A stretch of DNA of 24,317 nt, from the NCBI RefSeq assembly GCF_004010195.1, contig NC_057717.1:102650572-102674888 (forward strand), read 5' to 3'. Positions 2,034-23,230 of the stretch are shown here, in pieces. Made by a program: the position numbers and the translations under genes. This DNA is from Chiloscyllium plagiosum (taxonomy: Eukaryota). Each line of letters begins with the position of its first letter. Within the stretch, counting starts at the first letter, position 1. A model generated the notes under the pieces. That model was not told the origin of the DNA. It searched no databases and saw only the letters and a list, made by a program, of their open reading frames with translations.

Positions 2034-2216
2034 AATGATTAGAATTTTTCAGAATATTTGTCTTAATCGTTGGCTGTCTTGTCCGTCAGAATACTGTTTA
2101 GATTATTGAACATGTTCACTGCTCTCTACTTCACTACTAATGACCCTCTGAAGGAAGAAATCTGACCTCCTTGAAGAGTGGCACACACCAGCCCCCTCCT
2201 CACTCTCTCAATGAAA

Positions 2217-2388
2217 GCAAATGCTGGAGATTGAGACAAATGCAAAAAAAAACTGCTGGAGGAACTCAGCAGGGTCAGTGAAGAGAGAAAGAGAGACAGA
2301 GTTAACATTTTGAGTCCGTTATGATCCTTGTTCAGGACTGGAGACCCAGAGAGCTGCCAGACCTGCTGAGTTTCTCCAACACTTTCTG
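2217..2388. mobile_element. Degenerate inverted pair of PLE terminal repeats (family P2)
   Basis: Inverted arms ctgctggaggaactcagcagg / cctgctgagtttctccaacac. The middle gagttaacattttgagtcc...ttcagga is a decayed antisense hammerhead-like core, similar to 18666-18760. Confidence 0.6.
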
Positions 2389-2751
2389 CGCTGGCCCCTC
2401 CTCCACCTCGTCCTTTCGATGCACCCCCTTATGCCGAACACTCTGGCGAACCTTGGGATCACGTGGCCGAGTGCTCCCCCCATCGGGTATGATCGAAACC
2501 GTTCTGTGCAAGGCCGCTCCCCACGCCCGTGAAGTGCGTTGGGATGATGTTGAAGGCGCTATGTAAATGCAGGCTATCGGGGTGTGGGGTGGGCAGACTG
2601 AGTGCACAATTGTTGCTGGATGGGAGTGTTCGGTTGTCGCTTGAGCGAGTGCTGTTTCTTCCGGTGAGTAACCCTCGCGCCCAGCAGTGCGTCAGGCTCA
2701 GGTCTGTTCACGCCCTCGTCTCTGACGGTACCCGCTGGTTGTGTTTTGCAG

Positions 2752-3059: not shown

Positions 3060-3975
3060 ACTCGGGGCATGGAGTTGGCAAACCATGTTGCAGCTGTAGA
3101 AAGCCCTTGTTAGGCCGCACTTGGAGTATTGTCTGCAGTTTTGATTGCCACACTACCAGAAGGACGTTGGAAGCTTTGGAGAGAGTGCAGAGAAGGTTCA
3201 CCAGGATGTTGCCTGGTCTCGAGGGCGTGGCTGTGGGGAAAGGTTGGGTGGCACGGTGGCTCAGTGGTTAGCACTGCTACCTCACAATGCCAGGGACCCG
3301 AGTTCAATTCCAGCCTCGGGCGACTGTCTGTGTGGAGTTTGTACATTCTCCCCGTGTCTGTGTGGGTTTCCTCCGGGTGCGCCGATTTCCTCTCACAATC
3401 CAAGGATGTGCAGGTCAGGTGAATTGGCCATGCTAAATTGCCCCATAGTGCTAGGTGCATTAGTCAGGGGTAAAGATCGGGACTGTGCACTCTTCAGCAG
3501 GTCAGTGTGGACTTGATGGGCCAAAGGGTCTGTTTCCATACTGTAGGGAATCTATAAAAGAAAGACCAGGATTGTTTTCACTGGAAAGACAGCAGCTGGT
3601 AGGAGACCTGATAGAGGGCTACACAATGATGACAGGATGGATAGTTTCCCAGGGTTAAAGTTTCAATTAAAGTTTCAATTACAAGAGGGTATAGGTTCAA
3701 GGTGAGAGCGGGAACATTTAAGGGGAGATGTGAGAGGGAAGGTTTTCACACGGAGAGTGTTAGGAGCCTGGAATGCACTGTCAGAAGAGGGGGGGGAATC
3801 AGGATATTGGAGACATTTAAGAGGCACCTGGATGGTTACATGAATAGGGAGGGAATAGGGGGATATGGACCGAATAAGGGCAGATGGTTTGTTCTTTAGT
3901 TTAGTTGAGGCATGATGATCAGCACAGGCTTGGAGGGCCGAAGGGCCTGTTCCTGAGCTGTACCTCTCCTTTGTT
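3060..3975 (+). mobile_element. CR1 (HER1-like) LINE 3' fragment, interrupted by an HE1 SINE
   Basis: Encodes LVRPHLEYCLQF and FKRHLDGYMN CR1 ORF2 C-terminal motifs; 3' tail GGGCCGAAGGGCCTGTTCCTGAGCTGTAC. Confidence 0.85.
3246..3554 (+). mobile_element. HE1-like V-SINE nested in CR1
   Basis: GGGTGGCACGGTGGCTCAGTGGTTAGCACTGC head, V-domain, tail ending CTGTAGGGAATCTA. Confidence 0.9.
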
Positions 3976-4643: not shown

Positions 4644-5000
4644 AGGAGTGGCACAGTGTCTCAGTGGTTAGCACTGCTGCCTCACAGCGCCAGGAACCCA
4701 GCTTCGATTCCAGCCTCGGGCGACTGTCTGTGTGGAGTTTGCACATTTTCCCCATGTCTGCGTTGGTTTCCTCCGGGTGCTCCAGTTTCCTCCCACAGTC
4801 CAAAGATGTGCAGGTCAGGTGAATTGGCCATGCTAAATTGTCCATACTGTTCAGGGATGTGTGGGTTAGGAGCATTGGTCAGGGATAAATGTAGGGTAAT
4901 TGTGTAGGGGAGCGGGTCTGGGTGGGTTACTCTTCAGAGGGTCGGTGCGGACTTGTTGGGCTGAAGGGCCTGTTTCCAAGCTGTAGGGTTTCTATGATTC
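4644..5000 (+). mobile_element. HE1-like V-SINE (full length)
   Basis: tRNA head, V-domain TGTGGAGTTTGCACATTTTCCCCATGTCTGCG, tail CTGTTTCCAAGCTGTAGGGTTTCTATGATTC. Confidence 0.9.
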
Positions 5001-6085: not shown

Positions 6086-6997
6086 CCACTCCTGCAAAGA
6101 GTCACCCTCGGTGACCACCCTCATGTCTGAAACTGGTGCCCTCCCATCTGGCATCAGGACTGTCCTCAATTGACATTATTCCAGCCAAGTTCACCCCAGT
6201 GAGTTTGTCCATTCAGATGGTGGTCTGACTTGCTTCTGAAGCAATAAGGGACTCTGCCTGAACAAAGACTCTTCACCGTTTACACAGTGATCAACCAATC
6301 GATCGATTTTGGCACATTGTGTCCTCGGCAACTCCACGACAACTGAGGCCTGAGTAAAGGCCGATCCCAATGATGGGAGCAGGCTGTCAGAGCCAGGTTA
6401 GTACAGGCTGGTAAATGGGCAGAGGCAGATGCACATGGCTTCTGTTGTAGGCACTGGTGCCAAGAGCTGGTTACCAAGGAGCAGATGTTACTGAACAGCA
6501 TTGTGGATGACCTCCAAGTGGTTTCCACGTCTGACTGGCATACCCTTGATGTGATATTTCCATTGACTCAGCATGGCTACCCTGATGTGCTGGGCGGGTG
6601 TGGCCCCATCCGATCTGCTCCCGCCCCAGACCGGTGCCTTACTGAAGCCCCATCTCCCCACCACTAATCCCGGGGGAAATGGCAAGTTCAAACAAGCCCC
6701 TCATCAGCTCCATAATCTCCGATGCAGTCAGGGACCATTAAACCCACAACTGTTCTCTAAACGAAATGCGCATCAATTATGAACATGCTTGGATTAATCT
6801 GAGATAAACTGCAAAGCAGTTTGTTGGTAATGGTCTATTCTCTGAGTCTCATTGTTTGTTTGTTTTATTGTTCAATGACAGAGAAAATGAAAACAGAATA
6901 AACGTACCTCAAAGAGATTTGACTTCTAAAGATGGACTTCTAAAGATGGCTGATTTTGCTTTCTGAATTTTGCCCTTTATATTTCCTTCCAAATCTC

Positions 6998-7690
6998 ATT
7001 CTCTGTCTCTCTCTCTCTCTTGTCTCTCTCTGTCTTTCTCTCTCTCTGTTTCTCTCTCTCTCTGTCTCTCTGTGTGTCTCTCTCTCTCCTTTTTTGGATC
7101 TTATTCTCTGTCTCTCTCTGTCTGTCTGTCTGTCTCTCTCTCTGTCTCCCTCTCTCTCTGTCTCTCTCTCTCTCCTTTTTTGGATCTTATTCTCTGTCTC
7201 TCTCTGTCTGTCTGTCTGTCTCTCTCTCTGTCTCCCTCTCTCTCTGTCTCTCTCTCTCTCCTTTTTTGGATCTTATTCTCTGTCTCTCTCTGTCTGTCTG
7301 TCTGTCTCTCTCTCTGTCTCCCTCTCTCTCTGTCTCTCTCTCTCTCCTTTTTTGGATCTTATTCTCTGTCTCTCTCTGTCTGTCTGTCTGTCTCTCTCTC
7401 TGTCTCCCTCTCTCTCTGTCTCTCTCTCTCTCCTTTTTTGGATCTTATTCTCTGTCTCTCTCTGTCTGTCTGTCTGTCTCTCTCTCTGTCTCCCTCTCTC
7501 TCTGTCTCTCTCTCTCTCCTTTTTTGGATCTTATTCTCTATCTCTCTGTCTCTCTCTCACACACATTCTCTCTCTCTCTCTCACACATTCTCTCTCTCTC
7601 TCTCTCTCTCTCATTTTCTCTCTCTCTCTCTCTGTCTCTCTCTCTGTCTCTCTATCTCTCCTTTTTTGGATCTAATCCTCTGTCTCTCTC
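6998..7690. repeat. (CT)/(CTGT)-rich minisatellite with 86-bp unit
   Basis: The anchor TTTTTTGGATCTTATTCTCT recurs with GGATC at 7096, 7182, 7268, 7354, 7440 and 7526 (exact 86-bp period), plus a diverged copy at 7668. Confidence 0.95.
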
Positions 7691-8034
7691 GCTGAGTTCA
7701 GTTGCATGCTGTTTCGGGACATCTCTACTCAAGTTTTCCTATGTGTTCACTGGTCGTGGTTATGAGTTTTATTGTAACAGCTCAGGCATGACCCTAGTTC
7801 CCTTGGGTCAGATGTGACGCCTCCTGTTGTTGAACAGCTGTGATGAACAGACTCAGCATCAAACCTGGGCATTTTCTTGAGTAGAAAAAGTCATGTGTGG
7901 TGAAAATGTGAATGAAAGTCAAACTTCTGATTGTATACTTTTAAAAAACTTTGTTTTGATTAAGCTTTAGTAATGAAGGCATTTTTAAAATGAAGTTCAA
8001 ACATTTGCAATCTCAGGGAGTTGTCTCCACTTTT

Positions 8035-9344: not shown

Positions 9345-9660
9345 TTTTCATTCCCGCGATATAAGAATCACTGGCCAAGCCAGCATTTATTGCCCATCCC
9401 TAATTGCCTAGAGGGCAGTTAAGAGTCAACCACATTCTGGAGTCACATGTAGGCTAGACCAGGTAAGGATGGCAGATTTATTTCCCCAGTAGGGCATTCG
9501 ATAGATTTTTAATAACAATCAACAGTTCTGATTGGTTTTGGTTGCTATTGGCTAGCTTTTCCTTGGATTAAAATTTCCCCCAAGTGCCAGGTCAGTGTGT
9601 GAACTCAGATCCCCAGACCATTAAATTATGATCCTGGATTACCAGTCCAGTGACAGTATC
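9345..9660 (-). mobile_element. tRNA-derived SINE family B, 3' part (split by the PLE insertion)
   Basis: gccagcatttattgcccatccctaattgcc...gggcagttaagagtcaaccaca...gaccaggtaaggatggcagattt matches the copies at 11980-12304 and 18826-19402. The head continues at 11339-11372. Confidence 0.8.
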
Positions 9661-11338
9661 CCGTTTCCCTGGCCCCCACTGCCTCATCTTCACTGTGGAC
9701 GTCCAGTCCCGATACACTTCCATCCGCCATGACCAGGGCCTCCACGCCCTCCGTTTCTTCCTCTCCCGACATCCCCAACTGTACCCTTCCACTGACACTC
9801 TCAGTCACTTGGCTGGACTGGTCCTTACCCTCAACAATTTCTCCTTTGAATCCTCCCACTTCCTCCAGACGAAAGGGGTAGCCATGGGCACCCGCATGGG
9901 CCACAGCTATGCCTGTCTCTTCATCGGGTACGTAGAACAGTCCATTGTCTGCAGCTACACCGGCACCATACCCCACCTTTTCCTCCGCTACATTGATGAC
10001 TGCATCAGCATGACCTCGTGCTCCCGCGAGGAGGTTGAGCAGTTCATCAACTTCACCAACACATTCCACCCCGACCTTAAATTCACCTGGACCATCTCTG
10101 ACACCTCCCTCCCCTTCCTGGACTTCTCCATCTCCATCAACGGTGACTGACTCAACACTGACATCTTCTACAAACCCGACTCCCACAGCTACCTGGACTA
10201 CACCTCCTCCCACCCTGCCTCCTGTAAAAATGCTATCCCTTATTCCCAATTCCTGCGCCTCCACTGCATTTACTCTCAGGAGGACTAATTCCACCATCGA
10301 ACACACACCAGCTGACCTACTTCTTTAAAAACTGCAATTTCCCCTCCTGTGGTTGATGATGCCCACCAGTGCATATCATCCACTTCCCGCACCTCTGCCC
10401 TCGAACCCCACCATTCCAACCAAAACAAGGACAAAAGGCCCCTGGTCCTCACTTTCCACCCCACCAACCTCTGCATATAACACATCATCCACCGCCATTT
10501 CCACCACCTACAAACCGACCCCACCACCAGAGATATATTTCCGTCCCCACCCCTATCCACTTTGCATAAAGACAATTCCCTCCACAACTCCCTTGTCAAG
10601 TCCACGCCCCTTAACAACCCACACTCCCCTCCCGGCACCTTCCCCTGTCACTGCAGGAATTGCAAAACCTGCGCCCACACCTCCCCCCTCACCTCCATCC
10701 AAGGTCCCAAGGACCCACATTTATCAGAGTTTCACCTGCACTTCCACACATGTCATTTACTGTATCCAACGCTCCTGATGCGGTCTCCTCTACATTGGGG
10801 AGACTGGACGCCTCCTGGCAGAGCGCTTCAGAGAACATCTCCGGGACACCCGCACCAATCAACCCCACCGCCCCGTGGCCAAACACTTCAACTCCCCCTC
10901 CCACTCCGCCAAGGACTTGCCGGTCCTGGGCCTCCTCCATCGCCACTCCCTCACCACCCGACGCCCGGAGGAAGAACACCTCATCTTCTGCCTCCAACCC
11001 CATGGCATCAATGTGGATTTCAGCAGTTTCCTCATTTCCCCTCCCCCCACCTTATCCCAGTTCCAACCTTCCACCTCAGCGCTGCCCTCATGACGTGTCC
11101 TACCTGCCAATCTTCCTTCCAACCTATCTGCTCCACCCTCCTCTCTGACCTATCACCATTACCTCTGTCTACATGTCATACTCTCAGCTACCTTGCCCCC
11201 AACCCAAGCCCCCCTCCCATTTACCTTACCACTCCCCCCACTCANNNNNNNNNNNNNNNNNNNNNNNNNNNNNNNNNNTGCTTTTCCAGCACCCCACTCT
11301 CGACTCTAATCTCCAGCATCTGCAGTCCTCACTTTCGC
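9661..11338 (+). mobile_element. 5'-truncated Penelope-like retroelement (Neptune-type): RT, Cys-rich linker and GIY-YIG endonuclease, pseudogenised
   Basis: RT motifs TVDVQSRYTSI, GVAMGTRMG, LRYIDD, LPFLD; thumb YKPDSHSYLDYTSSHP..KNAIPYSQFLR; linker PCHCRNCKTC; EN VIYCIQRS*CGLLYIGETGRLLAERFREH. Several stops and frameshifts. Flanked by the 14-bp TSD CCAGTGACAGTATC (9647-9660, 11339-11352). Confidence 0.92.
11245..11278. other. Assembly gap (34 N)
   Basis: Run of N. Confidence 0.99.
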
Positions 11339-11372
11339 CCAGTGACAGTATCAATTAGCCACCACCTTCCCT
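11339..11372 (-). mobile_element. 5' head remnant of the SINE family B copy split by the PLE
   Basis: ccagtgacagtatcaattagccaccaccttccc corresponds to ccagcgataatac...cattgcctcccc at the end of the 18826-19402 copy. Confidence 0.6.
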
Positions 11373-11504
11373 AAGACCAGAGCCACTTCTGTAATATTAT
11401 CTGCCAATTGGGTAAGTCGCCCTTTTTAGATACCTCTGCTTTCCACTTCTTTGTTTGTTAAAAAAAGGAAATCTGTGTTTTAATTGTAAAAGTCCTGTGT
11501 TTTG

Positions 11505-11575
11505 TCTGGAAACATTGACTCTCCTGCTCCTCTGATGCTGTTTGACCTGCTGTGCTTTTCCAGCTCCATGTTTAT
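11505..11575 (+). mobile_element. PLE terminal-repeat fragment (family P1)
   Basis: gaaacattgactctcctgctcctctgatgctgtttgacctgctgtgcttttccagc matches the P1 unit. Confidence 0.7.
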
Positions 11576-11979
11576 TAACCTTTGTCTGTGAAACTCTCAC
11601 AGGAAGATCAGAGGCAAAGCACTGGTTTGGAATGCAGTAGTGATGGCCCAGTGAGAAGGGGAGATCTCAGGGGCTGGGGACTCTTTTCGGGGAGGCTGAA
11701 TGGTTCTGAGACTTTTCCGGGAAAGGTTCGGACCTGGTCAGGGCTGGGGAGGTCACAATTTCTTCTCAAAACTGGCTCTTGACGCTGGGCTGTGGAAGCC
11801 TTCACAGTCAAACATTTCCCGACCTTTCCTGAGGAACAGGTGATGAACGCGCTGCCTCACAGCGGATTGTACACTGGCTGGCTCAGTGCTGCCTCTGCTG
11901 ATCCCATCGTCGTATTACGCAAAGGAGATATATTCAGTAGCACCCAGCAGAGCTGGGAGCAGGATTTTGGCCACGAGCT

Positions 11980-12304
11980 ATTATCACTGGAGTGTTAATC
12001 CAAAAACCCAGGTAATAATCTGGGTGGACCTGGGTTCAAATCCCACTACAGCAGGTGGTGGAATTTGAATTTAATGAAAGAAATTCTGGATTTAAGAATC
12101 TAATGATGGCCATGAATCAATTGTCATGGGAAAAAACATCTGGTTCATTAATGTTATTTAGGGAAGGAATGTACCAACGTTACTTGGTCTGGCCTAAATA
12201 TGACTCCAGACCCACAATCATGTTGTTTCCCTATGAGGCAATTAGGGGTGGCAGTAACTGCTGGTCTAACCAGATATGCCCACATCCCACGAATGAATAA
12301 AAAA
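11980..12304 (+). mobile_element. tRNA-derived SINE family B
   Basis: B box GGGTTCAAATCCC, body TGGTTCATTAATGTTATTTAGGGAAGGAA...TGACTCCAGACCCACA, tail GCCCACATCCCACGAATGAATAAAAAA. Confidence 0.8.
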
Positions 12305-12544
12305 GCACTTCAGCACTTTCAAAATGCTTTAAGACCCATTAAGTACCTTTTCAACTGTAGCGGACATAAACACAGCTGTTCTGCTGGAGCTGATTAGTGA
12401 ATATAAGCTTTGAGCTGGATGGCCCCAGGTTAGAGTCGCTCTCTGGGACCCATTGACCGTGAAGGAACCCTCCAAAGCCTCTGGTGGGGGCAAGTCTACT
12501 GTCTCCCAGAGAAAAAGGGGCAGGGTGGCTGCAAGCAGGACAAA

Positions 12545-12675: not shown

Positions 12676-13637
12676 TAAGAAATTCTGAAGTCATCAGTGG
12701 AGTGTGGTGCTGATTCTGTCCTGTTGCTGTGTTGACCCCTGACCTGTGGTGCCTTTGGAGGAGCGGAGGTGGGGGGGAGATCATTTCAAGGAGCACTGAG
12801 CTGAATGGTTTAACAGAGACTAAATCCTGGGGGATTTTATGACCACCCTGGGAAACAATGCAAATGGTTCTACAGTTAGAATACCCTGAATTCTTTTAAA
12901 TGTTCTGAGCCTGGGAACCCTGTCTCTCGCGATGCCAAGCCATGGTCTGGACTGGCACGGCGCCATATAAATTCAGCAATTCCAAGCTTACGTTCGCTTA
13001 GGACGGAATGTTTCTGGCACAAAATGGCAATTAGTACTGGGTATCTTAAAGCTTTGATGTGGAAGAGGACAAGGGAACAATGTGAAGGATGGGATGGAGG
13101 GGAGATGTTGACAATGTGCTCAGATATGAGCGTTCAGCTTGGATGATTGGACTGCGTCCACACAGAGGGGCTAAGATTTGTTGACATGGCCAATTTGTTA
13201 GTGGCGTGCTATAAATACACTCCAAAACCGTACTCAAATGGGATTTCTAAAGTCAAAGATTGGAAAGTTTGAGTTCTCAACAGAGGATGGATAGGCTCAG
13301 ACCTCTTTTGCTGGAGTGCAGGAATTTGAGAGATGACTTTAGAGAGATTTATAAAATAATGAGAGGTATTGGTAGAGTTGATGGTAGTTGTCTTTTTCAT
13401 AAAATGGGGAATTTCAAGATGAGGGGGCACATTTTTAAGGTGAGAGGAGAGAGATTTAAAAAAGACATGAGAGGCCATTTTTTTTTACACAGAGGGTGGT
13501 TCAGGGTGTGGAATGAACTTCCTGGGGAAGTGGTGGATGCGGGCATAGTTACAATGTTAAAGACGTTTGGTTAAGAACATGAATAGGAAAGGTTTGGAGG
13601 GATATGGGTCAGGAGCAGGCAGGTGGGACTAGTTTAG

Positions 13638-13733
13638 CCTTGACCCAGGGTCATTTAGACTCGAAACGTGAGCTCTTTTCTCTCCTTACAGATGCTGCCA
13701 GACCTGCTGAGATTTTCCAGCATTTTCTCTTTC
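13638..13733 (+). mobile_element. Solo PLE terminal repeat (family P2) with decayed hammerhead motif
   Basis: AGGGTCATTTAGACTCGAAACGTG...GATGCTGCCAGACCTGCTGAGATTTTCCAGCA; flanked by the 7-bp direct repeat AGTTTAG (13631-13637, 13734-13740). Confidence 0.75.
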
Positions 13734-13982
13734 AGTTTAGTTTTTGATTATGTTCAGCATGAGTCGAAAAGTGTGGCACTAGAAAAGCGCAGCAGGTCAG
13801 ACAGCATCCAAAGAGCAGGAAATTCCACGTTTCGGGCCTAAGCCCTTCATCAGGAATTCCTGATAAAGGGCTTATGCTCGAAACGTCGATTCTCCTGCTC
13901 CTCGAATGCTGCCTGACCTGCTGCGCTTTTCCAGCGCCACACGTTTCAACTCTGGCTCTCCAGCATCCGCAGTCCTCACTTT

Positions 13983-14187
13983 GGCGGGTTTTGAGAAGAT
14001 TTGTAGCTCAGGTTGAAGTTCTGGATGTAGATTTGTTCGCTGAGCTGGTAGGTTCATTTTCAGACGTTTCGTCACCCTACTAGGTAACATCTTCAGTGAG
14101 CCTCCGGAGTCCGGAGATGTCACCTAGCCGGGTGACGAAAGGCCTGAAAATGAACCTTCCAGCTCAGCGAGCAAACCTGCATCCACA
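13983..14187. mobile_element. Palindromic PLE terminal-repeat element (family P3)
   Basis: Inverted arms tggatgtagatttgttcgctgagctggtaggttcattttcag / ctgaaaatgaaccttccagctcagcgagcaaacctgcatcca; 12-bp TSD AGTCCTCACTTT (13971-13982, 14188-14199). Confidence 0.85.
14060..14099 (-). ncRNA. Minimal type I hammerhead ribozyme motif (PLE-associated, family P3), core intact
   Basis: Minus strand UCA-CUGAAGA-U-GUUACC-UAGUAG-GGUGAC-GAAAC-GUC-UGA: conserved cores, 6-bp stem II, UCA/UGA stem I, palindromic ACGU in place of stem III. Confidence 0.75.
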
Positions 14188-14680
14188 AGTCCTCACTTTC
14201 TCCATTATGTTCAGCATGGACTGGTTGGAGTGAAGGGTCTGTTTCCATGCTGAGTATGACTCTATGACTCTTAAAGAAAGGCTCGTCTCAGCTCCCAGTT
14301 GGAGTGCCGATGGGTTACCTCGATAAGCACTGAGCCCTTTGCACTGAGAAAGTTGCTGTTCCTCGCTTGTCAGCTTGTGTGGTGCGAGACTTTGAGAAGT
14401 GGCATCCGAAGTCCCTGAGCGGGTGCGGGTGACATCGCCCACCCCCCCCACCTTTCCCATTCACATACGGCAATTGTCGGAAATGCTTTGTAGCTCAGCC
14501 GGTATTAATAACGGAGGAATGGAGTTCTTGCACTGGAGCAATGAATGTTCCTTGAAACTGGAAGGTTTTTACCCAAACCTGGAGCAGGGGAAAGGTTGGC
14601 ATGAGTTGAGCAGGGAATGGTAGCAGGAATGGTGAGGTCCCTGATGGGACAGGAATATGCTCCCAGCGAGACCCAGTAAC

Positions 14681-14976
14681 ATTCCTATAGTGTGGAAGCA
14701 AGCCATTTGGCCCATTGGGTCCACACCAACCCTCTGAAGAGCATCTCACCTCCCTCCCCTATTCACCTTTCCCCATGGCTAACCCACCTAGTGTGCACAT
14801 TATGGGGTAATTTAGCATGGCCAATCTTCTTAACCTGCACATCTTTGGACTGTGGGAGGAAACCCACGCGGACACGGGGAGAATGTGCACACTCCACACA
14901 GACAGTCACCCAAGGCTGGAATCAAACCCAGGTCCCTGGTGCTGTGAGGCAGCAGTGCTAACCACTGAGTCACCCC
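14681..14976 (-). mobile_element. HE1-like V-SINE
   Basis: gctgtgaggcagcagtgctaaccactgagtcacc head and V-domain on the minus strand. Confidence 0.88.
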
Positions 14977-15084
14977 AATATTCATAGCTAAGCAACTCTT
15001 AATGTTCTTCAGTGGTGAAGTGGATCCCTTGACGTTGGAAATCCAGTCAGACAAAGATCAGATCTGTGGGAAGGTCAGATCTGG

Positions 15085-15150
15085 AATGTTGATTCTGTTT
15101 TCCGTCCACAGATGTTGACTGACCTGCTGAGCATTTCCATTCCTCTTTTT
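15085..15150 (+). mobile_element. Decayed PLE terminal-repeat fragment (family P2)
   Basis: gttgattctgttttccgtccacagatgttgactgacctgctgagcatttcca resembles 13680-13730. Confidence 0.5.
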
Positions 15151-15681
15151 CTTGTCATTATTATCCCATAGCAAAGGGGTGGTGGTCTTTGGAGGAGAGG
15201 TGAATGGCAGAATTCCGGCTCAGGATCCCAGACTGAGGTTCTGCTGGGGTTGCCTAGGAGACTGTAACAAAGCAGATTGTGCGTCTGTACAATGCAGGAT
15301 CCTCTATCAGTTTAAATCACTCCCCGTGACAGTTTTACAGAATAAATATTATTGATATCTGGGTAGAACTATAATGTTCCGTCTTTATATAATAGGGACT
15401 CGTCAAGTTTTCAGCGAGTGAACTGAACTCGAGATAAGAGTTGAGACTTGTCAGAGAGTACAGTAGGATTGAAACTTCTGTATATGAATCAAGAACTAAA
15501 TAGCTCTTAACAGGAAAAGCTCAATTCAGCATCCCATTCCACGACTATAATAGAAAGAACATGCTTTTTATCTGCAACTTCCCCTTCTAAAATATCATAC
15601 AGTGCCCTGGGACTTCTAATGTTTACAAGAAAATGCACTTTGTTCTTTTTACATCTTAGTTGGATGGTAGCAACTCTGACA

Positions 15682-16265
15682 GTCACAGAGTCATACACGG
15701 AAACAGACCCTTCGGCCCAACCACTCCATGCCGACCATAATCCCAAACTAAACTAGTCCCACCTGCCTGCACCTGGCTCATACTGCTCCAAACCTTTCCT
15801 TTCATGAACTTATCCAAATGTTTTTTAAACATCGTAATTGTACCCACATCCACCACTTTCTCAGGAAGATCATTCCACACATGAACCATCCTCTGTGTAA
15901 AATATTTGCCCCGCGTGTCGTTTTTAAATCTCTCCCCTCACGCCTTAAAAATGTGCCCCCTAGTCTTGAAATTCCCCATTTTAGGGAAAAGACAACTACC
16001 ATTAGCCCGATCTGTACCTCTCATTATTTTATAAACTTCTATCAGGTCACCTCTCAACTTCCGACACTCCAGTGAAAGTGGTACCAGGTTATCTAGTCTT
16101 TCTGTATAACTCAAACCTTCCATACCCAGCAGCATCCTGGTAAATCTCTTCTAAAACTTCTCTGGCTTGATGATGTCCTTCCTATAACTGGGCGACCAGA
16201 ACTGGACATAGCATTCCAGATGAGGTCTCACCGATGTCCTGGGTCAACCTCAATGTAATATCCCA
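15682..16265 (-). mobile_element. CR1 (HER1-like) LINE 3' fragment
   Basis: Minus ORFs MEGLSYTERL...LRGDLIEVYKIMRG and VWNDLPEKVV...FKKHLDKFM; same subfamily as 13265-14270. Confidence 0.9.
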
Positions 16266-16995
16266 GTATTCGCTGAGTGTCAGTCTGGGCTGGGATTGGG
16301 GGGGGGGGGGTCGGGTGACACTGAAGAATTTAGCTGATTGAAGAGGAATGGGCTGGCTCTCCCAATGTTCTTCCAATACGTAATGACTGACCCAGCGTCC
16401 ACAAACGGGGATGATTGCGCTGTTTGACCTGGCCCCCGTGTTTCTCTGCGTCAAAGCAGTGACCAGTCTTTGGAAAGTCCCTCCTCGATTGTTCCAACAC
16501 TCTGGGGAAATCCCTGGGGTTGAGAGGGGCGCTATGGGAATGCAGGCTCTTCCTCTCAGTTCTTTCCCACATGAGTTTCCAGTGCGGGGAGTGGAACTTG
16601 GCTTCAGACCATGACGAGCAGCTGGTATAAGCAGCAACATGAGAGACATCTGCTCCTGGTGGGATTTATGGGAACTGGGAGCGATCCAGAGCTGGTTCCT
16701 TTCCAGTGACAAATGTGGAATGAAAGCGATACCCAGCGAAAGCTTCTCAAGTCATCAGGGAGTTAATTCTTGGCCACCCCTGAGTGATCCCCGATGACTG
16801 ACTGACTTTTTTTGGTTAAAATTGTAATACTCAGATGAGATTCCTGGGTCTGAGTGGGGTTGATAGCAAAATGTTCTGAATCTTAAAATTGTCAGCTTAA
16901 TAGCATTTCAGTGTATAGCACTGGCTGAATAGGATTATGTGGTTTTGTGTCCCACTGTAGAGACAAGACTGAGACTGACACTTCAGTGTGGTGTT

Positions 16996-17465
16996 GTGGC
17001 CAAACACTTCCACTCCCCCTTCTACTCGCACAAGGACATGCAAGTCCTGGGCCTCCTCCACCGTCAAACTCTAACCACCCAACGCCTGGAGGAAGAGCGT
17101 TTCATTTTCCACCTTGGGATCCTCCAACCCCATGGCATCAATGTGGATTTCACCAGTTTCCTCAACTCCCCTCCCCCTGCCTTATCCCAGATCCAACCCT
17201 CCAACTCAGCACCACCCTCTTGAACTGTCCCACCTGTCTACCTTCCTTCCCACCTATCCACTCCACCCTCCTCTCCGACCTATCACCACCGAACCCCCCC
17301 ACCTTCGTCTACCTATCGCATTCCAGCTGCAATCCCCTCTCCCGTTTATCTCTTCTCCTTAATCATTGACTCTCCTGCTCCTCGGATGCTGCCTGACCGG
17401 CTGTGCTTTTCCAGCGCCACATTTTTCGACTCTGATCTCCAGCATCTGCCAGTCCCCACTTTCTC
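16996..17465 (+). mobile_element. 3' fragment of the Neptune-type PLE (GIY-YIG C-terminus plus P1 terminal repeat)
   Basis: VAKHFHSPFYSHKDMQVLGLLH...RLEEERFIFHLGILQPHGINVDF is homologous to 10875-11030; ends in the P1 tail CTCCAGCATCTGCCAGTCCCCACTTTCTC. Confidence 0.85.
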
Positions 17466-17711
17466 TGAGTGCTGTCTTTCCCCATGAATCTCTTCCCCAA
17501 TCTCTGTCCGCCCAGTTCCAAATAAAACTTCCTGGGGCACAATCTCAGAGGTGTTCTCCCTGATCTTCTCGACAATATTGATGCCCCAGTCAATGCGGAT
17601 TATCCGGTAAAAATCAAAAGAACTGTGGCCGCTGGAAATCAGGAACAGAAACAGGGAAAAGCTCTGAAGAACTGATGGTAGCTGGGAAAATGTTGGTTTA
17701 CATGCAGAGGT

Positions 17712-18025
17712 GGGGCAGCACGGTTGCTCAGTGGTTAGCACTGCTGCCTCACAGCACCAGGGTCCCAGCTTCAATTCCAGCCTCGGGGGACTGACTGTGT
17801 GGAGTTTGCACATTCTCCCTGTGTCTGCGTGGATTTCCTCTGGATGCCCTGGTTTCTTCCCACAATCACAAAGATGTGCAGGTCAGGGTGAATTGGCCAC
17901 GCTAAATTGCCCATAGTCCTAGGTGCATTAGTCAGAGGGAAATGGGTCTGGGTGGGTTACTCTTCGAAAGGTCGGTGTGGACTTGGTGGGACAAAGGGCT
18001 TGTTTCCACACTGTAGGGAATCTGA
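17712..18025 (+). mobile_element. HE1-like V-SINE
   Basis: GGGGCAGCACGGTTGCTCAGTGGTTAGCACTGCTGCCTCACAGC head, V-domain, tail TGTTTCCACACTGTAGGGAATCT. Confidence 0.9.
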
Positions 18026-18029
18026 TCAT

Positions 18030-18160
18030 AAGGAGAAAGTGAGGACTGCAGATGCTGGAGATCAGAGCTGAAAATGTGTTGCTGGAAAAGCGCAGCAGGT
18101 CAGGCAGCATCCAAGGAGCAGGAGAATTGACATTTCACGCATGAGCCCTTCTTCAGGAAT
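18030..18160 (-). mobile_element. Solo PLE terminal repeat (family P1) with decayed hammerhead motif
   Basis: Minus strand runs ATTCCTGAAGAAGGGCTCATGCGTGAAATGTC...GTCCTCACTTTCTCCT; direct repeat GGAATCTGATCAT at 18017-18029 and 18156-18168. Confidence 0.82.
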
Positions 18161-18348
18161 CTGATCATGAGGCAGGGATGGGGGAAGGAGTAAGCAATAG
18201 GTGGAAATAAAGCCCAAGGAAAGAGAAGAACAGTTGGACAGACAAAGGATTGGGTAACGATCTGACTAGGAGGGAGAATAGCTGTTATTGGGGACTGTTA
18301 GTGGCAAACAATGGGTTGTGTGTAATAGCAGACTGTGTGATAACAAGG

Positions 18349-18475
18349 AGAAAGTGAGGACTGCAGATGCTGGAGATCAGAGCTGAAAATGTGTTGCTGG
18401 AAAAGCGCAGCAGGTCAGGCAGCATCCAAGGAACAGGAAAATCGACGTTTCGGGCAAAAGCCCTTCATCAGGAAT
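18349..18475 (-). mobile_element. Solo PLE terminal repeat (family P1)
   Basis: Near-identical to 18030-18160; direct repeat TGTGATAACAAGG at 18336-18348 and 18488-18500. Confidence 0.85.
18441..18475 (-). ncRNA. Minimal type I hammerhead ribozyme motif (PLE-associated, family P1), core intact
   Basis: Minus strand AUUC-CUGAUGA-A-GGGC-UUUU-GCCC-GAAAC-GUC-GAU: both conserved cores, perfect 4-bp stem II, GUC cleavage triplet. Confidence 0.75.
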
Positions 18476-18665
18476 GTGACAACAATATGTGATAACAAGG
18501 CCTAGTGGATGGGGGTTGGGGTCAGGACATGGGATAAAGTTATTGAACTCGATATTGAGTCTGGCGGGCTGCAGGGTGCCCAAGTGGAAAACGAGGTGCT
18601 GTTCTTCCAGTTTACGCTGAGCTTCGCTGAGATGTTGGCCAGGGAACAGGGTGGGGTGTTGAAGT

Positions 18666-18760
18666 AAAAACAGAAATTGTTGGACATGCTCAGCAGGTCT
18701 GGCAGCATCTGTGGAGAGAAATCAGAGTTAACGTTTTGGGTACGGTGACCCTTCCTCGGG
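18666..18760 (-). mobile_element. Solo PLE terminal repeat (family P2) with decayed hammerhead motif
   Basis: ctcagcaggtctggcagcatctgtggagagaaatcagagttaacgttttgggtacggtgacccttcctcgg; minus strand CCGAGGA-AGGGUCACCGUACCC-AAAAC-GUU. Confidence 0.7.
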
Positions 18761-18825
18761 GCAGGTATGTTGAAGGGGCAGGCAACTGGGAGTTGTGGCG
18801 AGATTCTCTTGTGATGGGATTATCT

Positions 18826-19402
18826 TTATTTATCCATTTATGGGATGAGGATGTCTCTGGCTCGGCCAGCGTTTATTGCCCCATCCCTAATTGCCCAGAG
18901 GGCAGTTAAGGGTCAACCACATGGCTGTGGGTCTGGAGTCACATGTAGGCCGGACCAGGTAAGGATGGCAGATTTCCTTCTCTGAAGGGCATTAGTGAAC
19001 CTGATGGGATTTTCCCAACAATTGACAATGGATTCATAGTCATCATCAGATTTTTAATTCTAGATATTTTTAATTGAATTCAAATTCCGGGCATCTGCCG
19101 TGGTGGGATTTGAACCCAGGTCCCCAGAACATGACCTGAATCTCTGAATTAACAGTCCAACAACAAGTGTTGAGAGTGTGGTGCTGGAAAAGCACAGAAG
19201 GTCAGCAGCATCCGAGGAGCAGGAGAATTCCTCACCTCATTCCTGATGAAGAGCCAATGCCCGAAACATCAATTTTCCTGACCTGCTGTGCTTTTCCAGC
19301 ACCATGCTCTCGACTCTGATCTGCAGCATCTGCAGACCTCACTATCTCCTCGTTGATTTCAACCAGTCCAGCGATAATACCCCCAGAACATTGCCTCCCC
19401 CT
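18826..19402 (-). mobile_element. tRNA-derived SINE family B, split near its head by a P1 element
   Basis: gtttattgccccatccctaattgcccagagggcagttaagggtcaaccaca...gggatttgaacccagg (antisense B box); the head resumes at ~19356-19402. Confidence 0.85.
19167..19350. mobile_element. Palindromic PLE terminal-repeat element (family P1) with hammerhead motif at 19243-19270
   Basis: Arms gagagtgtggtgctggaaaagcacagaaggtcag / ctgacctgctgtgcttttccagcaccatgctctc; + strand CUGAUGA-AGAGCCAAUGCCC-GAAAC-AUC. Confidence 0.82.
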
Positions 19403-19414
19403 GGTCGTTTACAC

Positions 19415-19530
19415 GCAGCTAGTTGTGGGAGCTGCAAACTGCCAGTTGTGATCGCTATTTAAAAATAGCGACGACACTTCAAAAGTACTTGGTTTCTGCC
19501 GCAGTGCTTTGAGACTCGCTAGAGTTTTGA
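19415..19530 (+). mobile_element. Old DeuSINE (SacSINE1-like) 3' remnant
   Basis: GCGACGACACTTCAAAAGTACTT...GTGCTTTGAGAC resembles the recalled Deu-SINE 3' region GTGACTACACTTCAAAAGTACTT...GCGCTTTGGGAC. Confidence 0.45.
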
Positions 19531-19940
19531 CCAACTCCAATGCGCTGCCAGCCTCCCTTGCTCATCAGCCTGATCTTCAGTCAGCTCCTGGTGTTACCGG
19601 TGCTTGAATTGTGACAGTGGCATCAGTGATTTAGTGCATGTGTTAATGATTCAGATGCTGGGGCAACCAAGCCACCCCTTCGCATACTTGCAGCAGTGCA
19701 GATAGAAGCTTAAAATAACAAAGAGGCAGTGATAGACTGGATCAATGGGCCAAGCTGAACAAACAAGTGAACAGAATGGAGCAAAATACTCTCGGGAGGT
19801 GAAAAACCTCAAAACATTGGAAATTCAGATTGACTTGGGGAGCGGGAAGGAAATGATGCAAGTCTGGTGATCACAAGGGTGTCTGAAGTCACGTTTGGCC
19901 TCAGCACCCAAGCTGACATTCCCACGTGAATGCTGTCAAA

Positions 19941-20240
19941 ACACGGTGACTCAGTGGTTAGCACTACTGCCTCACACCTGCTGTGCTTTTCCACTACTAC
20001 AGCGCTAGGGATCTGGGTTCGATTCCCACCTCGAGTGACTGTCTGTGTGGAGTTTGCACATTCTCCCCGTGTCTGTGTGGGTTTCCTCCCACAGTCACAA
20101 AGATGTGCAGGTTAGGTGAGTTGGCCAAGGGCAATACAGGGTTAAAGTGATCGTGTTGGGGTCTGGGTATGAGTGGGATGGTCTTGGGACGGGTCACTGT
20201 GGGTCAAATAGCCTGTGTCTGTACGGTAGGGATTCTATGA
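19941..20240 (+). mobile_element. HE1-like V-SINE with a small P1-derived insert in its tRNA head
   Basis: CACGGTGACTCAGTGGTTAGCACTACTGCCTCACA-[CCTGCTGTGCTTTTCCA]-CTACTACAGCGCTAGGG; V-domain; tail GTAGGGATTCTATGA. Confidence 0.88.
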
Positions 20241-20640
20241 CCATGGCAGCAAGTTAGAGCCAGTTTCTGGTTTGGTGGTAGGGGGTGTATAATATCAGGT
20301 TGATTATGATTTTGAAAGTTTTTCATTGAAGAGTTCAGGTTAGGGGAGATGTCTGGAGCAGATTAGCTCTTTGCAAAGCACTCTCGCAGACACCAGAGCC
20401 TTGAGAAAGTGTAGGCCCAGATGTAACCTGAGGCTGATTGAAGTTCCTCATGTCCCCAACGGAGCCTGAGTTTGTTTGCATCCGCATTAACCTCTGCGCT
20501 CCAGGGAATTTGAGGAATTCTCGGCGAGGCCGTTCTCTGTGGATTCTCCCGAGCGAAGGGTCAGACTCATTCTCAGCTGTAATAGGGTGAGACTACAATG
20601 AAAGGAAGGGGGATGGTGGTGGTGGGGGGGGGAGTGGGGA

Positions 20641-20758
20641 NNNNNNNNNNNNNNNNNNNNNNNNNNNNNNNNNNNNNNNNNNNNNNNNNNNNNNNNNNNN
20701 NNNNNNNNNNNNNNNNNNNNNNNNNNNNNNNNNNNNNNNNNNNNNNNNNNNNNNNNNN
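20641..20758. other. Assembly gap (118 N)
   Basis: Run of N. Confidence 0.99.
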
Positions 20759-21609
20759 CCCCACCCCCACCCCCCACTCCAGGGCAGTCAGTCCAGGAGA
20801 CCCCTCTGCCTGGCAGCTTACTGATGAACTAAAAATGGCTATTCTGTAAAATCAGATTGCAGAAAGCAGTCCTTGGCCCAGTAACCTATCTGAAAGGATT
20901 TCCTTTGCCATGTTTGAGCACCTTTTGTAACAGGGAAGCCTTTACAAGCTCTTTCATTCCGTTCCGCAGTGTAGATAGGCTGTGCTGGAGATAGCTGACG
21001 AGATTCAGAGATATTATCAGGAAGCACTGTGCAGTCTGTAAGATTTCAATTGGCGATTTATCTTGTGTGCTGAAGAATGCTTTTTGTGCGAGTGAGTGAT
21101 TTGCTTTTGCTGTTTGTTTGGACTGGGGGAGAAAAAGCTCATATCTTTTCTCTTCGAGCAGCACTTGGCATTTACCTTAGCCTTCCTTTCTCTTTCATTT
21201 TAAATAAAGCTCTGGGATCCCCGGAGCCCTGGAGAATATTGCTTCATTAAAACCGAGGCACATGGCTGTAGGTGGTGCAGGAAAACTGGTGTTAAAACGC
21301 TGGAAAATGTTCACTGGGCTCTGTAGGGAGAGAAGCAGGATAACTGGGTGCAATCTGTTCAGTCGCCGGGGGCGACCACAGGGTGGGGAGGTTTCTGGGA
21401 GGGTCCATACTGCCCCTTTGAGGGAGGCAGAGTGGTTTGTTAGGGGTACGGGGGTTTCCTTTTCTGTGCAGTTTGGGTGATTAACAGATGAGGCCAGGTG
21501 AGTTGGGTACAAGGCTAAAGGGGTATTATCTCCCCTGCATCTGGTACTTTGTTCAGTTACTGACTGGCCACCCCCATCCCCCAAAAAAATCCCTGCCCAC
21601 CCCCATACA

Positions 21610-23230
21610 CCAGCACACGCCCACACACATAGACCCACAAAAAAAACCCATACACACACATGTGCACACACACACACTATCACACGTGTATGTGTGTGTG
21701 CGCGCATGCATGAGTGGGATAATGCGCGTGTGGATGAGTGAGAGACTGGGACTCACACACGCACTCTCTCACACACCTACAACCCACTCGTGTACATACA
21801 CACAATTCCACTTAATCTCTCTCTCTCACACATACACACACAATCCCACTCTCTCACTCACACACACACATGCGCGCGCACTCACACACACACACGCAAT
21901 CCCACTCTCTCTCTCACATACACACAATCCCACTCAATCTCACACACATGCACACAATCCTACTCAATCTCTCACACACACATACACAGAATCCCACTCT
22001 CTCTCTCACTCACACACACGCGCACGCATGCACACACACAATCCCACTCTCTCTCTCTCACGCGCACATACACAATCCCACACTCTCTCATACATACACA
22101 CAATCCCACTCAATCTCTCTCACACACACACAATCCCACTCTCTCACTCACACACACACATGCGCGCACACTCACACACACACACGCAATCCCACTCTCT
22201 CTCTCACATACACACAATCCCACTCAATCTCACACACATGCACACAATCCTACTCAATCTCTCACACACACATACACAGAATCCCACTCTCTCTCTCACT
22301 CACACACACGCGCACGCATGCACACACACAATCCCACTCTCTCTCTCTCACGCGCACATACACAATCCCACACTCTCTCATACATACACACAATCCCACT
22401 CAATCTCTCTCACACACACACAATCCCACTCTCTCCCTCACNNNNNNNNNNNNNNNNNNNNNNNNNNNNNNNNNNNNNNNNNNNNNNNNNNNNNNNNNNN
22501 NNNNNNNNNNNNNNNNNNNNNNNNNNNNNNNNNNNNNNNNNNNNNNNNNNNNNNNNNNNNNNNNNNNNNNNNNNNNNNNNNNNNNNNNNNNNNNNNNNNN
22601 NNNNNNNNNNNNNNNNNNNNNNNNNNNNNNNNNNNNNNNACACAATCCCACTCAATCTCACACACACATACATACAATCCCACTCAATCTCACACACACA
22701 ACCCCACTCATGAGCACACACACACAATGCCACTCAATCTCTCACAAACCCGCACGCGCACACGCAATATCCTGCTCATGCGTGCACACACACACATACA
22801 CATGCGACACAATCCCACTCGCACACACACATATACACACACACATGCACATGTGACACAATCCCACTCGTACATACACATGCGACACAATCCCACTCGC
22901 ACACACACATATGCACACACACACAATCCCACTCGTGTGCACAGAGACACAAACACACACATGCACACAGACATGCAAATGCACACAGACACATGCATGC
23001 ACACACATACTGACACACTCACAAACACACACACAAACATGTGCACGCTCTCACATTCAGATGCTCACACATGAATACAACAACCTCACTCATGCACGTA
23101 TACACACGCGCATGCACACACACACGTATTTATGCACACACCCAAACACACACACATGTTCACATACACACAGGCACACAGACACACACTCACACATACT
23201 CATGGATACACACATACATACCCACCCACC
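21610..23230. repeat. (CA)-rich minisatellite built on CACAATCCCACTC monomers, with a 290-bp higher-order unit
   Basis: Units start at 21841, 22131 and 22421 (CAATCCCACTCTCTC...). The first two are almost identical; the third runs into the N gap. Confidence 0.93.
22442..22639. other. Assembly gap (198 N)
   Basis: Run of N. Confidence 0.99.

Follow-up and report, generated by a model that had tools for sequence, protein, structure and literature searches.

What are the small hammerhead-bearing repeats that lie close together in one stretch of shark DNA, and how did they come to be there? The stretch is 24,317 nt long and comes from Chiloscyllium plagiosum (contig NC_057717.1, positions 102,650,572 to 102,674,888); below it is called the window. 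An earlier account made from its letters and open reading frames (the sequence-only reading) had described three families of tiny units, P1, P2 and P3, between 13631 and 19350. Each carries hammerhead ribozyme (HHR) motifs and was said to move as a discrete element mobilised by the enzymes of Penelope-like elements (PLEs). The whole window was analysed on both strands, with a close reading of 13400-19600. We conclude that P1 and P2 are probably short non-coding retroposons derived from the terminal (pseudo-long terminal repeat, pseudo-LTR, or 3') module of PLEs, and P3 likewise. It appears likely to us that all are non-autonomous PLE derivatives copied through a common 3' module by the reverse transcriptase (RT)/GIY-YIG protein of PLEs. 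Hammerhead-type units account for a good share of the region: by the sum of unit coordinates, some 1.2 kb out of 5.7 kb. The units on which the argument turns are listed here with their target site duplications (TSDs).

13638-13733, plus strand: P2a, 96 nt, with decayed head, box and short 3' end; TSD AGTTTAG at 13631-13637 and 13734-13740.
13762-14203, no single strand: composite insertion of 442 nt containing P1d, P1c and P3; 15-nt TSD ATTATGTTCAGCATG at 13747-13761 and 14204-14218.
13762-13856, minus strand: P1d, an inverted partner arm with a full head, in which a cleavage-site C to G change is the only defect; outer end at about P1 position 97.
13857-13982, plus strand: P1c, a P1 unit with a G8 to A head defect; tail interrupted or followed by P3 after GTCCTCACTTT.
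13983-14188, no single strand: P3, with inverted arms 13983-14105 (minus) and 14106-14188 (plus); the sole P3 locus in the window.
18030-18160, minus strand: P1b, a solo P1 with decayed head in the tail of a repeat resembling a short interspersed element (SINE); TSD CTGATCAT at 18022-18029 and 18161-18168.
18347-18475, minus strand: P1a, a solo P1 of 129 nt with intact head, inside the 3' untranslated region (UTR) of an older PLE fragment.
18665-18767, minus strand: P2b, a P2 unit with decayed head; TSD TGTTGAAG at 18657-18664 and 18768-18775.
19160-19363, no single strand: inverted pair insertion; TSD CAGTCCA at 19153-19159 and 19364-19370.

The heads were searched for with a strict descriptor written for hammerheads that lack helix III (minimal HHRs): CTGANGA, 0-1 unpaired nt, stem II of at least 4 bp, a loop of 3-8 nt, GAAA, CGT and H. 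Exactly two matches were obtained in the window, at 18471-18444 and 14096-14063 on the minus strand, while 0/300 first-order Markov shuffles of the window contained any match at all. A search of this kind had been proposed with the sequence-only reading, and the two matches are precisely the two motifs which that reading had called intact:

18444-18471, minus strand: intact minimal hammerhead of P1a; CUGAUGA, unpaired A, stem II GGGC/GCCC, UUUU loop, GAAAC-GUC.
14063-14096, minus strand: intact minimal hammerhead of P3; CUGAAGA, unpaired U, 7-bp stem II, GAAAC-GUC.

The same reading had listed seven further sites as mutated versions, and in a MAFFT alignment of 14 units all seven align with the heads as homologues, each with an identifiable defect. 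In the P1d head (13826-13854, minus strand) a G replaces the cleavage-site C, and in the P1c head (13859-13890, plus strand) the core G8 has become A. Stem II is broken in the heads of P1b (18128-18160, minus strand) and P1e (19243-19270, plus strand), where ACGT has changed to ATGT and ACAT, respectively. Box 1 and/or box 2 are changed in the plus arm of P3 (14111-14150, plus strand) and in the P2 heads at 13640-13670 (plus strand) and 18730-18760 (minus strand).

A script-based dissection of 11 heads found all core parts, namely CUGANGA, GAAA and the UH cleavage triplet, intact in two (P1a and the minus arm of P3); the other nine have at least one defect each. Several of the changes are CpG transitions within CCCGAAACGTCGA, as would be expected of neutral decay in a methylated vertebrate genome, and the copies in the window are relics, mostly decayed now. 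What persists in the heads is specific. An unpaired nucleotide follows A9, before position 10.1, in 10/11 (A in P1 and P2, U in P3), the stem of P1b being too broken for the script to place it. The first stem II pair, G10.1-C11.1, is G-C in 9/11. The helix III loop is absent, and a palindromic ACGT (15.2-16.2) spans the cleavage site in 6/11, with CpG-type or other changes in the remaining heads. Stem II keeps at least four contiguous pairs in 8/11. At its second pair P1 and P2 have G-C where P3 has U-A, and at its fourth P1 has C-G, P2 U-A and P3 A-U, so that pairing is kept between families. Covariation was judged at this level, the copies within one family being too alike, and the compensatory changes bear out the sequence-only reading, which had named covariation of stem II as a check on itself.

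Could such heads nevertheless be chance features of an unrelated short repeat? The lack of recognition by Rfam and the weak helix I of the units, both taken up below, would suit that explanation. Against it stand the shuffled windows, the three divergent versions of stem II that keep both their pairing and the same unpaired position, and a 3' module that the units have in common with RT/GIY-YIG-coding copies. The shuffles and the head dissection already bring this explanation close to refuted, and we find it scarcely credible.

The heads that bear the motif are predicted ribozymes of the dimer type, since the self-complementary ACGU at the cleavage site implies that the ribozyme would be active only when two copies pair. 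The 40-nt head of P1a folds at -11.4 kcal/mol (z -2.13, with 6/200 shuffles as good). In this fold stem II is formed and UGAUG of the core is paired with CGUCG, as would suit a motif without activity as a monomer. Stem II is likewise present in the minimum-energy fold of the intact P3 head.

Behind the head the units follow a common plan. BLAST of P1, P2 and P3 units against the window and the MAFFT alignment showed that P1 and P2 can be aligned over the head and a conserved box of about 35 nt. The box sequence GCTGCCWGACCTGCTG occurs ten times in the window with at most two mismatches, against 0.06 occurrences expected, and 0/100 shuffles reached ten. Judged by this alignment, P1 and P2 are related subfamilies and not independent families. 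They part at the 3' end: P2 stops about 13-15 nt past CCAG/CCAA, near position 95, and P1 continues to a second CCAGCATCTGCAG and the tail GTCCTCACTTTCTCC, giving a long end at 127-129. The units are about 96-130 nt long and contain no open reading frame (ORF). That P1 units share their ends, as had been claimed, is confirmed by the five head-bearing P1 copies, all of which begin at one nucleotide, (A)TTCCTGA, four nt before the core, and by the tail GTCCTCACTTTCTCC, exact in two copies and near-exact in four more. The claim of three families fared less evenly. P1 and P2 units do recur, yet they are kin to each other, and P3 is confined to a single locus, where it forms two inverted arms.

Units of this size invite comparison with SINEs. 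ARAGORN found 0 tRNA-like genes in the window, and Rfam returned no tRNA, 7SL or 5S match there. A classical SINE with a tRNA, 7SL or 5S head was set aside as an identity for the units, whose head is the hammerhead motif. Outside the shark genome, neither metagenome nor viral contigs contained a match to a 28-nt pattern of the box. With a 21-nt pattern 15 loci came up in metagenomes, which we take to be chance matches, their flanks being without similarity.

The units are discrete insertions, three of them proven by uninterrupted paralogues within the window. The paralogues show the empty sites of P2a, of the composite at 13762-14203 and of the pair at 19160-19363. For P2a, the reverse complement of 15600-16300 holds AGTTTAG once. 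For the composite, the same paralogue has the 15-mer once (ATTATGGTCGGCATG) and no insert. The site of the pair was read from an alignment with the reverse complement of 11850-12400. The repeat at 13261-14260 and its inverted copy at 15680-16250, which serves as the empty-site reference for two insertions, are 80% identical over 379 nt; that at 18826-19159, host of the P1f/P1e pair, and its inverted counterpart at 11950-12300 are 74% identical over 338 nt.

Flanking repeats point the same way. In a scan of 11 elements for exact repeats (P1a being scored twice, with and without its junction filler), six had repeats of 7-15 nt. Among 20,000 random placements, repeats of at least 7 nt were found in 468 (2.3%) and of at least 15 nt in 48, mostly in simple-repeat tracts. 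CT-rich and CA/CT-rich minisatellite arrays at 6939-7700 and 21590-23220 (for example an 86-nt period at about 7025-7500) inflate this control. Repeats of 0-6 nt were found at the other five: the pair at 19160 before fillers were allowed, P2c, P2d/e, P1i and the PLE-A fragment. Once fillers were allowed, on the strength of the paralogue alignment, the 19160-19363 pair became a seventh element with a duplication, of 7 nt. The earlier statement that several units carry target duplications of their own is upheld for 7/11 tested elements (7-15 bp), three of them with empty paralogous sites. Overall the TSDs measure 7, 7, 8, 8-11, 11-13 and 15 nt, and the junction fillers 7-14 nt.

The individual junctions add detail. 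The TSD of P1a is 11-13 nt long, TGTGATAACAA(GG), at 18336-18346/48 and 18488-18498/500. At the 5' junction of this unit a 12-nt filler (18476-18487) is a near-copy of the target, so that the target is present three times; Tandem Repeats Finder (TRF) reports 1.9 copies of a 13-nt unit at 18474-18498. For P1b the duplication becomes 11 nt if 3 nt held in common with the head are counted. P2b lies within the GIY-YIG frame of PLE-B, an older PLE fragment, and splits it. Within the composite, P1d and P1c lie head-to-head with a 2-nt overlap, and an inverted-repeat scan returned arms of 101 nt that are 0 nt apart. The presence of GTCCTCACTTT on both sides of P3 can be read in either of two ways, as a TSD of 11-12 nt lying in the tail of P1c or as a tail that P3 has in common with P1. 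The pair at 19160-19363 consists of a 7-nt filler, P1f (19167-19229, minus strand), a 9-nt spacer, P1e (19239-19349, plus strand) and a 14-nt filler.

The SINE-like repeat whose tail holds P1b has at least seven copies or fragments in the window, at 3248-3553, 4648-4993, 17715-18023 and 19942-20096 on the plus strand and, inverted, at 797-1137, 1879-2034 and 14831-14974. Its tails end in ...CTGTAGGG(A/T)(A/T)TCT, and ARAGORN detected no tRNA in the copies. Three further loci complete the set of units:

2205-2400, no single strand: a P2-type pair outside the region first described; P2d (2205-2337, minus strand) has a decayed head and a long 3' end, and P2e (2338-2400, plus strand) is an inverted 5'-truncated arm; no clear TSD, 6 nt only.
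11490-11600, plus strand: P1i, a degenerate P1 with partly deleted head, located by BLAST and MAFFT; no TSD found in the flanking-repeat scan.
15058-15155, plus strand: P2c, a decayed P2 unit with uncertain boundaries; no TSD found in the flanking-repeat scan.

Which enzyme could have moved elements without a reading frame? Candidates lie in the same window, as copies and fragments of PLEs:

9632-11339, plus strand: the longer PLE-A copy, outside the region first described; RT fragment, Cys-rich linker and GIY-YIG with one in-frame stop.
16996-17467, plus strand: second copy of PLE-A, 5'-truncated; GIY-YIG C-terminus, 3' UTR of about 200 nt, and about 105 nt homologous to P1.
About 18161-18800, minus strand: PLE-B, an older and different PLE fragment (40% identity over 35 aa), host of P2b.

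The endonuclease C-terminus of the second PLE-A copy is 71% identical in amino acids to that at 10779-11093, and the RVT_1 and GIY-YIG matches of PLE-A fall on the same strand. Among 284 candidate relatives of the RT fragment, 26 longer ones had E<=1e-5, with at most 85% identity; their sources name them as uncharacterised shark and ray proteins, which agrees with the shark origin of the window. A protein-cluster search with the fragment returned only unnamed RT-like clusters. By BLAST and MAFFT, P1 positions from about 25 to 127 match 17361-17467, and positions from about 84 to 127 match 11280-11339. On this homology the 3' part of P1, some 105 nt, is the 3' end of RT/GIY-YIG-coding PLE copies.

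This shared module raises the possibility that the units are nothing but ordinary autonomous PLE insertions with extreme 5' truncation, and that no independent non-autonomous family exists. Their common 5' end would then be the place where RT stops at a folded hammerhead, or the true 5' end of the PLE transcript. Truncation at the 5' end is usual in PLEs (PMC8557442), solo minimal HHRs have been read before as 'probably related to truncated PLEs' (PMC4209133), and in vitro an Anolis PLE requires no more than a short RNA beginning close to where the hammerhead cuts (PMC11167929). The identity of the P1 3' part with the PLE-A 3' end also favours it. However, the five head-bearing P1 copies begin at one and the same nucleotide, and the only PLE-A copy that can be read at the corresponding place (17330-17360) has neither a CUGANGA box nor stem II upstream of the module. 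Since this coding copy has no head, P1 is not simply that copy cut short. The absence of the P1 head from the single readable PLE-A copy argues for a distinct short element, and we regard simple truncation as unlikely.

The non-autonomous derivation that we favour could work as follows. A unit would begin with a minimal type-I hammerhead without helix III, continue with the box of about 35 nt and close with one of the two 3' ends. The RT/GIY-YIG protein of coding PLEs would recognise the common 3' module and copy the units into new sites. Target-primed reverse transcription would leave duplications of 7-15 bp, short fillers and often an inverted 5'-truncated partner. The hammerhead may serve to process multimeric or read-through transcripts. 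Inverted 5'-truncated partners are found at three loci, as P1d (13762-13856), as P1f beside P1e (19167-19229) and as P2e beside P2d (2338-2400). On their outer side P1d and P1f stop in identical columns of the alignment, around P1 position 97 and near the end point of P2. This agreement hints at a second defined place where copying starts. P1f has its inner (5') end where cleavage is predicted; being a single case, this is one coincidence worth noting and not evidence.

A more far-reaching idea, which we consider doubtful and offer with reserve, is that the fixed ends are in-vivo footprints of the PLE machinery copying a minimal template. Copying would start immediately on the 3' side of a GAUGCUG/CAGCAU hairpin, either near position 95 or at 127-129. 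Both target strands would act as primers, yielding head-to-head pairs whose outer ends lie at the two start sites. The exact 5' end would come either from a hammerhead-processed circular monomer copied for one round or from the head defining the 5' end of the RNA. If this were true, the P1f arm, which starts where cleavage is predicted, would record a cut made by the ribozyme in vivo, and sharks would supply natural minimal templates by the thousand on which PLE retrotransposition and the role of its hammerhead could be dissected.

Several findings weigh against a non-autonomous, ribozyme-headed PLE derivative. Helix I is short within a unit, some 3 bp (in P1 AUUC/GAUU, one pair of which is mismatched; in P3 UCA/UGA), and P2 units start only 1-2 nt before the core, which means that a unit on its own may not be capable of cleavage. 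Taken whole, neither P1a (z -0.71, 52/200 shuffles as good) nor P2a (z +0.08) folds better than its shuffles; as modelled, fold energy gives no support for structure beyond the head and a local hairpin. Rfam hammerhead models, which had been proposed as a search alongside the descriptor, gave 0 matches in the window at gathering threshold and none among 19 matches at E<=10. This outcome is expected because those models describe hammerheads with helix III. The RT fragment of the longer PLE-A copy scores below the Pfam cut-off for RVT_1 (E=1.1e-5, 25.7 bits against 29.6), as does its GIY-YIG part with the stop read as X (E=7.8e-4, 20.1 bits against 22.6). The top two relatives of the RT fragment have RVT_1 above cut-off and lack the GIY-YIG endonuclease part; the closest annotated shark relative, tried as confirmation of an RT plus endonuclease architecture, fails for this reason. 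In the longer PLE-A copy a run of N at 11246-11279 masks the position of the head, leaving only one copy readable there. Further runs of N lie at about 20640-20760 and 22430-22640. All of the evidence comes from about 14 units in a single 24-kb window. Finally, no head-to-tail pairs or arrays of P units were found by TRF (periods up to 500) in 13000-19800 or in the BLAST map of the window, and with them any arrangement suited to dimer formation is missing from that region.

The last point bears equally on a retrozyme-type origin. In that scheme transcripts of tandem masters are cleaved by hammerheads acting in pairs, the pieces are ligated into small circles of RNA, and one round of reverse transcription from a fixed site on the circle produces unit-length copies with the head directly after the tail. 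Such a model has been proposed before (PMC4209133, PMC7229834), tandem retrozymes are described from one chondrichthyan (10.64898/2026.07.22.740005), and the unit-length shark copies with fixed ends would fit it, as would the 5' end of the P1f arm at the predicted cleavage site. The lack of arrays in this 24-kb window counts against it and the P1f coincidence remains a single case; the closest P1 heads on one strand in the window lie 315 nt from each other, and what separates them is unrelated sequence. We judge this origin improbable.

The function of the hammerhead in PLEs is still open (PMC8557442, PMC11167929). The shark units reduce a PLE to a ribozyme head and a terminal module of about 100 nt, with clean ends, TSDs and inverted partners. 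Shortness together with these features makes them handy natural material for asking what the PLE enzyme recognises, where copying starts and whether the ribozyme cuts in vivo. For annotation, the units should be masked as PLE-derived repeats and not read as microRNA-like hairpins. Sub-threshold Rfam matches to microRNA families occur at 14039-14168 (mir-642, 45.8 bits against a gathering threshold of 90), 19172-19311 and 13691-13808. As microRNA genes these were rejected, being inverted arms of P units and far below gathering; in an annotation they could wrongly pass for hairpin precursors.

How do the units compare with systems already described? Minimal HHRs in the pseudo-LTRs of PLEs have a list of features that includes a short helix I and a rather long helix II, and they cleave poorly in vitro (Cervera & de la Peña 2014, PMC4209133). 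The shark heads resemble them in lacking helix III, in the palindromic 15.2-16.2 positions, in G10.1-C11.1 and in the short helix I. Several consensus families per genome, mostly as dispersed single copies, and opposite-strand pairs about 100-700 bp apart are further likenesses. In contrast, the shark head occupies the extreme 5' end of a TSD-flanked unit of 96-130 nt, and the portion of that paper at hand describes neither ends nor TSDs of solo copies; in the available part of its main text cartilaginous fishes are unnamed.

Retrozymes are non-autonomous repeats with type-I hammerheads and, where TSDs occur, TSDs above 4 bp (Cervera & de la Peña 2020, PMC7229834), and across vertebrates, including one chondrichthyan, they are regarded as derived from PLE pseudo-LTRs (Li, Clavereau & Pollet 2026, 10.64898/2026.07.22.740005). 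Like them, the shark units are non-coding repeats with a type-I hammerhead and TSDs, found as dispersed 'solo' monomers. Retrozymes are, however, defined by head-to-tail repeats and circular RNAs, and 13000-19800 holds no such array of shark units. The chondrichthyan retrozyme of the 2026 preprint has a mean consensus length of 363 bp, against 96-130 nt here. The same preprint reports that Xenopus retrozymes are excluded from introns. Schistosome Sm-alpha and Sj-alpha (PMC2770079, PMC6155905) are likewise short, dispersed, non-autonomous retroposons with a type-I hammerhead. Their hammerheads are canonical and the elements tRNA-related, whereas the shark units have no tRNA-like part by ARAGORN.

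The closest parallel in mechanism is with PLEs themselves. PLE insertions show heavy 5' truncation, an inverted 5'-truncated copy at the 5' end and extra tails at the junctions (Craig et al. 2021, PMC8557442). For an Anolis PLE, cutting and extension are reported for both strands of the DNA, reverse transcription begins internally at a stem-loop, and an RNA that starts close to the hammerhead cut is a sufficient template (Frangieh et al. 2024, PMC11167929). Hammerhead mutants of that element still insert, and cleavage required protein (PMC11167929). By analogy, the shark units fit this picture: as in canonical PLE insertions (PMC8557442, PMC11167929), there is an inverted 5'-truncated partner, there are junction fillers, and the hammerhead lies near the terminal module. 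They differ from canonical PLEs in having the whole architecture in ORF-less units of about 100-130 nt with two alternative 3' ends.

A literature search of titles and the beginnings of abstracts returned no description of these shark units; the supplements of PMC4209133 and of the 2026 preprint may list cartilaginous-fish families. In the portions of text available for PMC8557442, PMC7229834 and 10.64898/2026.07.22.740005 the word 'shark' is absent. Solo PLE minimal HHRs, opposite-strand pairs, PLE-derived vertebrate retrozymes and SINE-like schistosome elements with hammerheads are all in print. What the sequence-only reading had proposed, a SINE-sized non-autonomous PLE element that PLE enzymes would mobilise, is supported in part, through four minimal-HHR signatures, discrete TSD-flanked units without an ORF and a PLE 3' module, and the idea is not new. 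Set beside these systems, the shark units are a known kind of element with a tidy local proof of mobility.

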